Source: Eubacteriales bacterium SKADARSKE-1 (GTDB taxonomy: Bacteria > Bacillota > Clostridia > Oscillospirales > Acutalibacteraceae). Taken from it: a stretch of DNA of 64,000 nt. Below the pieces are notes generated by a model, which saw nothing but the letters and a program-made list of their open reading frames with translations, was not told the DNA's origin and did no database searches. Below are positions 3,437 through 4,951 of this stretch, one piece after another. Location: assembly GCA_030920305.1 (NCBI GenBank), contig JARLUB010000004.1, forward strand, positions 43,558 to 107,557, read 5' to 3'. The position numbers were made by a program, and so were the translations under genes. How positions within the stretch are numbered: position 1 is the first letter of the stretch; each line of letters begins with the position of its first letter.

Positions 3437-4951
3437 TTAATAATCCTCAAATTCATCTTCTTCTGAGTCGTCGAGTGGATTTTCACTTCCTATTTGATCT
3501 CTTCTAGCTGCTATAGCTTCTGCCAAAATACTTGCAAGGTCCTTTTTTTCCTTTTTAGCTTCTTCTTCAGCGTTCGCTTTCTCCTGCGCTACTTTTGCTG
3601 GATCAACATGCTTTAGTGTTGGCGTTTTTTGTATTTCTGAAAGTAGATTTGTAGGCGCACTTGTAGGAGTTTGCGCTGCAGTTTTTACCTTTGCTGCAGT
3701 GACGGAAGGCTTTACTGGAGGAGGTGGAGGAGGTGGAGGAGGTGGAGCCGTTGTTTCTTGTTGTTTTTCTGTAGGTGATACTGCAGCTCCCTCTGCACTT
3801 TGTTCTCCTTCTTTTTCTTCTTCTTTTTCCTCTTCAGCTTCCTCAGCAATTTGTTCTTGTTGTTCTTCTGCAGGAGCTTCAGTCGTCTCCTGTTCCTCTT
3901 CTTCTGCAGTGTTTTGTTCGTCTTCCTCCTCTACTGCAGTGGTTTCCGCTTCATTTTCATTAAAAAGATCAGCAACTCCTTCATATTCATTTACTTCTTG
4001 TTCTAATGCAGGAGCTTCCTCTTTTGCAGCAGTGGTCAAATTAACTTTTGGTGGAACTGGCGGAGGCGTTGCTTCTTGTTGTTCTTCTACAGTAGTCTTT
4101 TCAGCTTCCTCAGCAATTTGCTCTTGTTGCTCTTCTGCAGGAGCTTCAGTCGTCTCCTGTTCCTCTTCTTCTGCAGTGTTTTGTTCATCTTCCTCCTCTA
4201 CTGCAGTGGTTTCCGCTTCATTTTCATTAAAAAGATCAGCAACTCCTTCATATTCATTTACTTCTTGTTCTAATGCAGGAGCTTCCTCTTTTGCAGCAGT
4301 GGTCAAATTAACTCTTGGTGGAACTGGCGGAGGCGTTGCTTCTTGTTGTTCTTCTACAGTAATCTTTTCAGCTTCCTCAGCAATTTGCTCTTCTTCTTCA
4401 GTAGTTTGTTTTAACTCAGTAGGAGCTGTTTCTGCCAGTTTTTCCATGTTTGGTTGATCTTTTTCGGGTGTTGCAGCAGCTTCATTAATTTCAGTAGCAC
4501 TTTGAGTTTGTACAGAGTTTTGTTTGTCGCCTTCATCAATAGTATAAGAATACGAGGAATGTGTATCTTGATCAGATGAAGAGGGAGAAGGGGCATATGA
4601 AGCAACGCTAGATGTAATACCAGCCAAAGAGGATATGCCCATTAGTGCAGATAAACATATGGAAACAAATGGGCCTCCAAAACCGCCACTTATTGATTCC
4701 AAATCTTCTTCCCCTAACTCTGAGGAACCTTGAGAAAGGGCTTGCTTTTCATATTCCAACAATTCTTCTTTAGTAAAATTAAATCCATGTTGTTTAGCCA
4801 GTGGTAATATCAATTCATTTGTAATTTTATAAAATTTTTCTTTTGGATCTGATATGTCTTTGTATTTTTCTTTAACTTTAACAATTTTTTCTTTAAAACC
4901 TTTTTCTGCCGCCATCTGGGTATAAAATTCTTTAATTTTTTCATTAATCAC
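3437..4951 (-). CDS. Nif11-type double-glycine-leader protein with a hydrophobic segment, acidic/Pro-rich repeats and a C-terminal poly-Pro/WH2/central/acidic module
   Basis: The ORF-track frame runs 3437..4960. The GTG at 4951 sits 6 nt after RBS 'aagaggtg' and is the likelier start. The N-terminus ...LPLAKQHGFNFTKEELLEYEK...ELGEEDLESISGG fits the Nif11 leader pattern. The C-terminus is PPPPPPPPPP...NLLSEIQKTPTLKHV...DLASILAEAIAARRDQI...LDDSEEDEFEDY. Confidence 0.85.
   Translation of the reverse strand: MINEKIKEFYTQMAAEKGFKEKIVKVKEKYKDISDPKEKFYKITNELILPLAKQHGFNFTKEELLEYEKQALSQGSSELGEEDLESISGGFGGPFVSICLSALMGISSLAGITSSVASYAPSPSSSDQDTHSSYSYTIDEGDKQNSVQTQSATEINEAAATPEKDQPNMEKLAETAPTELKQTTEEEEQIAEEAEKITVEEQQEATPPPVPPRVNLTTAAKEEAPALEQEVNEYEGVADLFNENEAETTAVEEEDEQNTAEEEEQETTEAPAEEQQEQIAEEAEKTTVEEQQEATPPPVPPKVNLTTAAKEEAPALEQEVNEYEGVADLFNENEAETTAVEEEDEQNTAEEEEQETTEAPAEEQQEQIAEEAEEEKEEEKEGEQSAEGAAVSPTEKQQETTAPPPPPPPPPPVKPSVTAAKVKTAAQTPTSAPTNLLSEIQKTPTLKHVDPAKVAQEKANAEEEAKKEKKDLASILAEAIAARRDQIGSENPLDDSEEDEFEDY
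3835..4400 (-). repeat. Intragenic near-identical tandem repeat with a 267-bp (89-aa) period: 2 full copies plus a partial third
   Basis: 'cagcttcctcagcaatttg' recurs at 3835, 4102 and 4369. The encoded unit is QIAEEAEK.TVEEQQEATPPPVPP(R/K)VNLTTAAKEEAPALEQEVNEYEGVADLFNENEAETTAVEEEDEQNTAEEEEQETTEAPAEEQQE. Confidence 0.9.

Follow-up and report, generated by a model that had tools for sequence, protein, structure and literature searches.

The question raised by one gene in a 64,000-nucleotide stretch of the genome of Eubacteriales bacterium SKADARSKE-1 (contig JARLUB010000004.1 of assembly GCA_030920305.1, positions 43,558 to 107,557; hereafter the window) is whether a bacterial protein can end in an actin nucleation-promoting module of the eukaryotic type and, if so, how such a protein might leave the cell. 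The gene, RUMPE_01002, lies at 3440..4951 on the minus strand and according to the list of open reading frames (ORFs) and the translation encodes 504 aa, with a GTG start at 4951 and a stop codon at 3437-3439. Treitli et al. 2023 give its length as 1515 bp (Dataset 3), and the database entry ‘hypothetical protein RUMPE_01002 [Eubacteriales bacterium SKADARSKE-1]’ matches the ORF product with 100% identity. A sequence-only reading of the window had proposed a eukaryote-like module in the last ~100 aa, made of poly-proline, WH2 (V), central/connector (C) and acidic (A) elements, the last three of which make up the VCA region of WASP-family proteins. Profile comparisons and published patterns support this proposal at the sequence level.

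The RUMPE locus tags belong to Candidatus Vesiculincola pelomyxae (Dataset 3, Treitli et al. 2023, PMC10579272), a coccoid, endospore-forming member of the Clostridia with a reduced genome of 1.4 Mb and 33% GC. It occurs in clumps inside membrane vesicles of Pelomyxa schiedti, an anaerobic amoeba of the Archamoebae, has no amino-acid or nucleotide synthesis, possesses an ATP/ADP translocase and depends on its host, and the authors view it as an intracellular parasite; highly expressed bacteriocin operons and heavy sporulation were also noted (PMC10579272). The sequence-only reading had recognized a spore-forming, host-associated, low-GC Firmicute correctly, and the epithelium that it had suggested as host is replaced by an amoeba. 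Intracellular life in an amoeba makes an actin-directed effector plausible independently of the sequence. RUMPE_01002, WH2 and Arp2/3 are not mentioned in the publication describing the organism (PMC10579272).

Layout of the C-terminal tail

The C-terminus of RUMPE_01002 contains, in order, ten consecutive prolines, a WH2 motif (LLSEIQKTPTLKHV), a charged linker, a C helix (DLASILAEAIAARRDQI) and an acidic tail bearing Phe and Tyr. The coordinates originally assigned to Pro10, WH2, C and the acidic element all translate exactly as they had been given. The proline run (PPPPPPPPPP, 3716..3745, minus strand, aa 403-412 of the translation) is a candidate docking site for profilin-actin and ends 20 residues before the WH2 motif, while two PPPVPP[RK] motifs are located further upstream. 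WASP-family proteins share, as a common hallmark, a proline-rich stretch just ahead of the VCA (Kollmar 2012, PMC3298513), and RUMPE_01002 has such a region immediately upstream of its own.

The WH2 motif, NLLSEIQKTPTLKHV, was located by translation and pattern match at 3605..3649 (minus strand). It is followed in the translation by the linker DPAKVAQEKANAEEEAKKEKK (3542..3604, minus strand), which at 21 residues is comparable in length to that of Entamoeba WAML_B (18 residues), and the alignments contain a single gap of 3 residues. The C helix occupies 3491..3541 (minus strand), as read from the translation and from the published C pattern. The acidic tail, GSENPLDDSEEDEFEDY, is encoded by 3440..3490 (minus strand) and has Phe at position -4 and a C-terminal Tyr; its end, 3440-3481, reads NPLDDSEEDEFEDY and runs directly into the stop codon. 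Asp and Glu account for half of the last 20 residues of the protein. An AlphaFold2 (AF2) model made from the single sequence contains a continuous helix at aa 451-490, across the linker and C, with a predicted local distance difference test (pLDDT) score of ~72. The WH2 motif is unstructured in this model, as is expected because WH2 folds on binding. The model was too poor for a fold search.

Profile and pattern comparisons

The decisive profile was built from 16 diverse curated eukaryotic WASP-family VCA regions, with RUMPE_01002 itself excluded. As a hidden Markov model (HMM) in HMMER it scored the tail at 48.1 bits and the full-length protein at 41.5 bits. None of 30,000 shuffled sequences (10,000 each by global, 12-aa block and 6-aa block shuffling) reached 48.1 bits, the maximum being 27.2 bits, and among 202 ORF segments of the window the runner-up scored 0.6 bits. 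Scaled to a library of 1.84 billion proteins, the E-value of the tail would still be ~1e-7. With hhalign the 16-VCA profile gave a probability of 97.1% and an E-value of 4.8e-11. The VCA pattern in the tail is more than chance. A profile from which two sequences picked for their LKHV motif were left out still gave 47.5 bits; the similarity is found at profile level over the whole V-C-A and is robust to such leave-out. When profiles were made from single lineages the tail scored 44.2 bits with Entamoeba WAML only, 29.6 bits with Dictyostelid WASP only and 14.8 bits with human sequences only. By sequence the tail is of the WASP-family VCA type.

Comparison with vertebrate VCAs was only suggestive. 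VCAs of WASP, N-WASP, WAVE and Las17 served as search seeds only; the seeds were validated in that their search returned 496 vertebrate WASP/WAVE fragments. Smith-Waterman z scores were 6-8 for WAVEs, and a vertebrate-only profile was weak, with an hhalign P of 1.9e-4 and a HMMER score of 14.5 bits that was equalled by 64 of 5000 6-aa block shuffles. Proven divergent WH2 peptides received similar values from the same vertebrate profile (MIM 18.7, VopL 18.1, WIP 16.6 and Spire 13.5 bits). Because of these weak results, curated protist sequences were taken from the supplement of Kollmar 2012. Overall, Pfam WH2 and vertebrate-only VCA profiles yielded 0-15 bits, and profiles that include Amoebozoa and ciliates yielded 44-50 bits. 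Other Pfam models produced only noise on the tail and its four sub-segments.

Published patterns lead in the same direction. The WH2 pattern was derived from 1080 WASP-family WH2 domains, within a family defined from more than 1000 sequences with alignments (Kollmar 2012, PMC3298513). Nine of its ten defined positions are matched in RUMPE_01002, which has a linker of the typical length, 4 residues, within WH2 and, in LKHV, a His in place of K/R; this LKHV variant occurs at least 15 times in the curated WASP file (Kollmar 2012 supplement). The C pattern calls for large hydrophobic residues at three positions spaced by three, for an R/K doublet (here RR) and for a terminal hydrophobic residue; it is matched in full by LASILAEAIAARRDQI and is by itself loose, with 6.5e-4 occurrences per residue. 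From composition, a WH2 pattern relaxed to allow His is expected 1e-7 times per residue, and WH2 followed by C in order 1.5e-3 times per 400,000-aa proteome. With a WAVE C-motif matrix the C helix had the second-highest score (tied) of 20,896 positions in the window.

Most similar eukaryotic sequences sampled

Protist VCAs were read from the alignment files of Kollmar 2012, a curated set that was sampled in part. Smith-Waterman scores of the tail were 100-101 (z 13) against Entamoeba WAML_B, 97 (z 13.7) against Paramecium WASP_B and 82 (z 12) against Dictyostelium WASP, and not one of 5000 global or 12-aa block shuffles equalled them. Composition-adjusted BLASTP gave an E-value of 4e-8 with Paramecium WASP_B (38% over 55 aa) and of 4e-5 with EhWAML_B (37% over 60 aa), and each of these alignments extends from WH2 across the linker as far as the end of C and has one small gap. 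Aligning the tail to WASP-family WCA regions, a check that the sequence-only reading had itself proposed, came out in its favor, with 48.1 bits, 97.1% in hhalign and these two BLASTP matches.

At the residue level, the WH2 motif is identical to E. histolytica WAML_B LLDQIQKGTQLKKVD at 9 of 15 positions and the C helix to Entamoeba WAML_A DLTSMLANAMANRRKDI at 10 of 17. C domains ending in RR[KE]DI number nine in the WAML file and zero among the WASP-file sequences listed. Among the lineages sampled, the tail appears, provisionally, to be nearest to those of the host's own lineage (Archamoebae) and of ciliates. Its likeness to the tails of Archamoebae WAML and of protist WASP suggests that it was captured from the host lineage or became closely adapted to it.

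RUMPE_01002 shares with Entamoeba WAML and with amoebozoan and ciliate WASP VCAs the order of proline-rich domain (PRD), WH2, linker, C and A, an identity of 37-38% from WH2 to C, the RR-x-x-I end of C, and C-terminal aromatic residues other than Trp, which also occur in the family. Unlike the Entamoeba WAML and WASP VCAs it lacks Trp in the A tail, carries His in LKHV and has a WH2 linker without a hydrophobic residue. It also differs from the eukaryotic proteins in having no IMD, WAID/GBD, WH1 or SHD, in beginning with a bacterial leader, and in residing in a bacterial genome with bacterial codon usage. Searches with Pfam and NCBIfam for regulatory N-terminal domains (WH1, SHD, WAHD, IMD/WAID, GBD) returned none, the sole results being Nif11 and a weak bacteriocin match. 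Because it has no N-terminal domain of a WASP subfamily, RUMPE_01002 is best described as a VCA carrier, yet as a member of no eukaryotic WASP subfamily. As far as these models can tell, the protein carries no autoinhibitory or eukaryotic regulatory domain.

The gene within the bacterial genome

A ribosome-binding site, AAAGAGG, can be read at 4960..4966 (minus strand), 8 nt 5' of the GTG, and a promoter-like TTGATT-17-TATTAT with a TG extension is present by consensus match at 5039-5011 (minus strand). In the single-cell transcriptome RUMPE_01002 has 641 transcripts per million (TPM) and ranks ~128 of ~1300 genes, within the top 10%, where its neighbors in rank are rpsC, rpsH, rpsO and groL (Treitli 2023 data, PMC10579272). 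This orphan gene has been kept intact despite reduction of the genome to 1.4 Mb.

GC content over RUMPE_01002 is 40-45% compared with 25-35% in the flanks. GC content at third codon positions (GC3) is 0.18-0.21 versus 0.21-0.32 in neighboring genes, and codon choice is similar; the raised GC content is due to first codon positions (GC1), that is, to amino-acid composition. The codon usage of RUMPE_01002 is native to the bacterium, and the gene is flanked by ordinary bacterial housekeeping genes on a 110-kb contig. Contamination by host DNA, or recent transfer, was rejected as unlikely because GC3 and codon usage match those of the bacterial neighbors. On the opposite strand, an ORF of 252 aa rich in G, S and C overlaps the gene (3699..4457, plus strand). 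It was rejected as a gene, being a low-complexity mirror of the GAA/GCT-rich acidic repeats.

Searches for homologues returned nothing beyond the protein itself: a word-index search of 5.8 billion proteins matched RUMPE_01002 only to itself, an exhaustive phmmer search of the tail against 1.84 billion representatives found only RUMPE_01002, and a scan of JGI metagenome contigs found no homologue of it. When a genome collection that does not hold this metagenome-assembled genome (MAG) was scanned with the leader, a deltaproteobacterial MAG provided the sole match, a distant Nif11 leader.

Leader, spacer and predicted export

The sequence-only reading had called RUMPE_01002 an exported protein. 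An export signal is indeed predicted, which is a Nif11/double-glycine leader rather than a Sec signal. The leader comprises aa 1-90 (4682..4951, minus strand), ends in LGEEDLESISGG and is recognized by both Pfam Nif11 and TIGR03798, its GG being aa 89-90 (4682-4687). Pfam Nif11 (PF07862) scores 25.2 bits against a cut-off of 23.8. TIGR03798 (leader_Nif11) scores 41.3 bits against a cut-off of 32.3 on aa 1-117 and 27.8 bits, under the cut-off, on the full-length protein; the match terminates precisely at G90, the last position of the model. Within LGEEDLESISGG, L at -12, D at -8, L at -7 and I at -4 precede GG, which we take to fit the classical double-glycine consensus LSxxELxxIxGG. AF2 predicts helices in the leader with pLDDT 70-78.

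The predicted mature protein (aa 91-504, 414 aa) has a net charge of -82 and contains 22% Glu. It would begin with FGGPFVSICLSALMGISSLAGITSSVASYA (4595..4681, minus strand), a hydrophobic helix rich in small residues and a putative membrane anchor or insertion element. The Kyte-Doolittle 19-residue maximum of this N-terminus, FGGPFVSICLSALMGISSLAGITSS..., is 1.85 (aa 95-113), hydrophobic enough that it could span a membrane. The TIGR03949 model (lactobin A/cerein 7B, class IIb bacteriocins) matches aa 77-113 with 20.0 bits (E 4e-4), just below its cut-off of 21.5, a resemblance only, by which the helix of the mature N-terminus looks like a class IIb bacteriocin core.

The hydrophobic helix leads into an acidic, disordered stretch of about 290 aa (AF2 pLDDT <50). 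Within this spacer Tandem Repeats Finder reports 2.1 copies of an 89-aa unit at 3833..4392 (minus strand, aa 189-366), with a period of 267 nt and 98% matches. Each full copy carries ATPPPVPP[RK] (4316-4333 and 4049-4066; aa 207 and aa 296) together with EVNEYEGVADLF, and so the two upstream TPPPVPP motifs that had been pointed out are present, inside a 267-nt tandem repeat. PPPVPP[RK] presumably corresponds to the class II SH3-ligand form PxxPx[RK], and we take EVNEYEGVADLF to be loosely like Tyr-based motifs such as the Nck-binding YDEV of enteropathogenic Escherichia coli (EPEC) Tir, or like acidic endocytic motifs of the DLF type.

According to the published annotation an exporter is both present and expressed: the genome contains expressed NHLP/Nif11-type peptidase ABC exporters and several expressed Nif11 precursors, and the genes RUMPE_01130 (peptidase/permease/ATPase, TPM 548) and RUMPE_01129 are annotated as exporter genes (PMC10579272). 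A C39-peptidase ABC exporter was not found within the 64-kb window. The annotated Nif11 precursors of the same genome measure 276-402 bp (PMC10579272 data). RUMPE_01002 shares the leader domain and double-glycine site with the Nif11-like leader precursors (N11P) that are associated with peptidase ABC exporters. The usual N11P are short precursors of bacteriocins or of ribosomally synthesized and post-translationally modified peptides (RiPPs), with about 130 aa or less in total, whereas the ‘core’ of RUMPE_01002 is an acidic protein of 414 aa that ends in a VCA of eukaryotic type. By its predicted leader RUMPE_01002 belongs to the Nif11-leader class, and by its cargo it does not.

Neighboring genes

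A lone ABC-transporter ATPase gene is found 100 nt downstream of RUMPE_01002 on the same strand (2647-3339, minus), with no permease gene after it. Its product comes closest to MacB, to DarD (darobactin export) and to exporter ATPases of the lactococcin-972 type. Just beyond it, 231-2617 (plus strand) holds four tandem paralogues for secreted Cys-containing proteins of 133-166 aa with near-identical signal peptides (MKK[FI]LLGILIFTMAFNLVGG); the copy at 897-1318 is split by a frameshift, and none of the four has a Pfam match. These paralogues could be further host-directed or bacteriocin-related products.

Another ORF, at 8178-8468 (minus strand), has a double-glycine leader (…LNNVSGG) and a sub-threshold match to the Lactococcin family (E 4.6e-4). 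It probably corresponds to RUMPE_01007 or RUMPE_01008, two small genes annotated as ‘hypothetical’ and highly expressed, with TPM values of 1549 and 2170, respectively. At 38832-44876 (minus strand) is encoded a pilin/adhesin-like protein of 2014 aa with seven isopeptide-bond domains of the FctA/Spy0128 type, notable in a reduced, vesicle-enclosed symbiont.

Proposed function and alternative explanations

The explanation that we favor, and consider probable if far from certain, is that RUMPE_01002 is an exported, constitutively active mimic of nucleation-promoting factors, in which a bacteriocin-type export module and an acidic spacer are joined to PRD-WH2-C-A. Such a protein would probably let the bacterium take control of host actin. 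The Nif11 leader would direct RUMPE_01002 to the peptidase ABC exporter RUMPE_01129/01130, which would cut after Gly90 and thread the disordered 414-aa product out of the cell, and the new N-terminal hydrophobic helix would hold the protein in the bacterial membrane or in that of the host-derived vesicle. At the distal end, once it had access to host cytosol, Pro10 would recruit profilin-actin, WH2 would bind an actin monomer, and the C helix and acidic tail would engage the Arp2/3 of the amoeba. Constitutive activity would be expected because there is no autoinhibitory or regulatory domain, and branched actin may then be built at the surface of the symbiont or vesicle, as by RickA or ActA. 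Such actin could serve to coat the vesicle, to control its trafficking or fusion, or to move the bacterium, were it ever free in the cytosol. In a more specific version, which we put forward tentatively as a possibility that may well not hold, a bacteriocin-export pathway has been turned to effector secretion, the VCA cargo was captured from the host, the helix inserts in the vesicle membrane and Arp2/3-dependent actin coats the compartment.

A number of observations weigh against this explanation, topology being the main weakness. The bacterium is enclosed in a host membrane and a Gram-positive ABC exporter would deliver its substrate to the vesicle lumen; we know of no route by which a chain with a net charge of -82 could pass from there into the cytosol. 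The cargo, at 414 aa, is far larger than the normal substrates of peptidase-containing ABC exporters, which have fewer than ~100 aa, and the RUMPE_01129/01130 exporter genes are not adjacent to RUMPE_01002. With no homologues in the libraries searched, conservation cannot support the module. Within the tail, the strict published WH2 pattern is unmatched since LKHV has His as its second basic residue, the 4-residue linker inside WH2 (KTPT) is without the usual V/I/F residue, and the acidic C-terminus has no Trp at or near its end. Trp in the acidic tail is usually important for Arp2/3 binding. Among the less sensitive searches, mini-HMMs for WH2 only and for C only, made from vertebrate sequences, failed to recognize the tail, and phmmer with the tail against the PDB returned no WH2 or WASP chain, only chance matches to proline-rich or charged sequences. 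The Pfam WH2 model (PF02205), which had been suggested as a check, gave no match at E<=10 when run on the complete protein, on the tail or on four sub-segments. The last of these we attribute to the low sensitivity of Pfam WH2 and of vertebrate-only profiles, and it was not counted against the module.

The missing Trp and the atypical WH2 linker could weaken activation and leave binding in place. RUMPE_01002 might then be a VCA-type ligand that acts, in soluble form or after release into the lumen, as a decoy or inhibitor, sequestering G-actin or occupying Arp2/3 without nucleation and damping phagosome maturation or vesicle handling; other vacuolar bacteria, for example Legionella, use effectors that suppress Arp2/3-dependent actin assembly (PMC13481308). 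We regard this as unlikely, given that every element needed for activation (profilin site, WH2, C with RR, acidic/aromatic tail) is found in canonical order and spacing and that the N-terminal hydrophobic helix suggests localized rather than diffuse action. Natural nucleation-promoting factors with F/Y tails also exist: WASP-family members in which F/Y replaces or joins the terminal Trp are on record, and whether any aromatic residue suffices in the A tail was left open (Kollmar 2012, PMC3298513). In the alignment files of that study the C-termini of DdWasp and AysWasp_A read ...EWSDY.

If its function were unrelated to actin, RUMPE_01002 could be an unusually long precursor of a Nif11-type bacteriocin or RiPP, or else a protein of the spore or the cell surface, and its likeness to VCA would stem from low-complexity chance or from an inert host remnant. 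This would agree with an N-terminus that is a bacteriocin-precursor module, with an ABC ATPase directly downstream that is like those of bacteriocin exporters, and with the bacteriocin operons and heavy sporulation published for the organism (PMC10579272), and there is neither a Pfam WH2 match nor any homologue to show constraint. Chance is excluded, however, by a score of 48 bits that no shuffle equalled even with local composition kept and that corresponds to E ~1e-7 at library scale, and an inert remnant would hardly be expected to remain intact, and to rank among the top 10% of transcripts, in a reduced genome of 1.4 Mb. We therefore consider a non-actin function quite improbable.

An in-frame fusion of a piece of host WAML/WASP with a bacterial Nif11 gene, created during single-cell metagenome assembly, seems extremely improbable, since although the assembly comes from amoeba single-cell data, the protein is on one contig only and the tail resembles nucleation-promoting factors of Archamoebae, the 504-aa frame is continuous, has a ribosome-binding site and lies on a 110-kb contig among bacterial housekeeping genes, the gene has a uniform GC3 and codon usage like those of its neighbors, the eukaryote-like part is limited to the last ~70 aa with no WAML N-terminal or GBD region, and identity to Entamoeba is just ~37%.

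Comparison with other bacterial proteins

If RUMPE_01002 is the mimic that we propose, its design can be set beside those of several bacterial proteins. RickA of Rickettsia combines a G-actin-binding domain with proline repeats and a WCA, has no recognizable signal sequence and no host-type regulatory domain, and is constitutively active (PMC2440523). Like RUMPE_01002 it is the protein of an intracellular bacterium in which a proline-rich region precedes WH2, C and A. RickA is alphaproteobacterial, however, has an additional N-terminal G-actin-binding domain and acts on cytosolic bacteria, whereas RUMPE_01002 is from Clostridia, has a Nif11/GG leader with a helix and is found in a vesicle-enclosed organism. 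Going by its described architecture, RickA appears to be the bacterial protein closest in design to RUMPE_01002, differing in phylum, host, leader and polarity.

Listeria ActA, a membrane-anchored, acidic, proline-repeat surface protein of a Gram-positive bacterium, uses WASP-like acidic, actin-binding and connector elements to activate Arp2/3. The likeness of RUMPE_01002 to ActA would be that of one acidic, proline-repeat-rich Gram-positive protein with WASP-like elements to another. ActA is exported by Sec, with a C-terminal transmembrane anchor and an N-terminal activating region, while RUMPE_01002 has the opposite polarity, its helix being N-terminal and its VCA, in canonical order, C-terminal. 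The FPPPP ligands of EVH1 found in ActA are absent from RUMPE_01002, whose repeats carry PPPVPP[RK] instead, and RUMPE_01002 has no match to the ActA family in Pfam or NCBIfam.

Legionella RavH nucleates actin on membranes containing PI(3)P (PMC13481308). Along with VopL-VopF of Vibrio it resembles RUMPE_01002 as an effector of bacteria living in amoeba vacuoles or in host cells that combines WH2-like motifs with a membrane-targeting element (PMC13481308). RavH and VopL-VopF have tandem WH2 motifs, are independent of Arp2/3 and are delivered by type IV/III secretion, whereas RUMPE_01002 has a single WH2 with C and A, which would be an Arp2/3-dependent design, and a bacteriocin-type leader.

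Significance

WASP-family mimics have been central to the understanding of Arp2/3. Few are known to us (RickA, ActA, BimA and viral p78/83), and these are all from animal pathogens. RUMPE_01002 appears unusual among them in its origin from another phylum (Clostridia), its protist host, its sequence likeness to the factors of the host's own lineage, and a RiPP/bacteriocin-type leader in place of a known effector-secretion signal. Where Pfam WH2 is relied on to find actin-nucleation mimics in bacteria, VCA modules of the protist type will be missed.

Should RUMPE_01002 prove active, it would provide a compact natural VCA without Trp with which the requirements of the acidic tail could be tested, and it would raise the question of whether double-glycine ABC exporters deliver host-directed effectors. 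If it were indeed an effector of the bacteriocin pathway, it would represent a new route of delivery and the first nucleation-promoting mimic both in Clostridia and in a symbiosis with an anaerobic protist. An active RUMPE_01002 would extend the hijacking of actin by VCA mimicry to the symbioses of protists.

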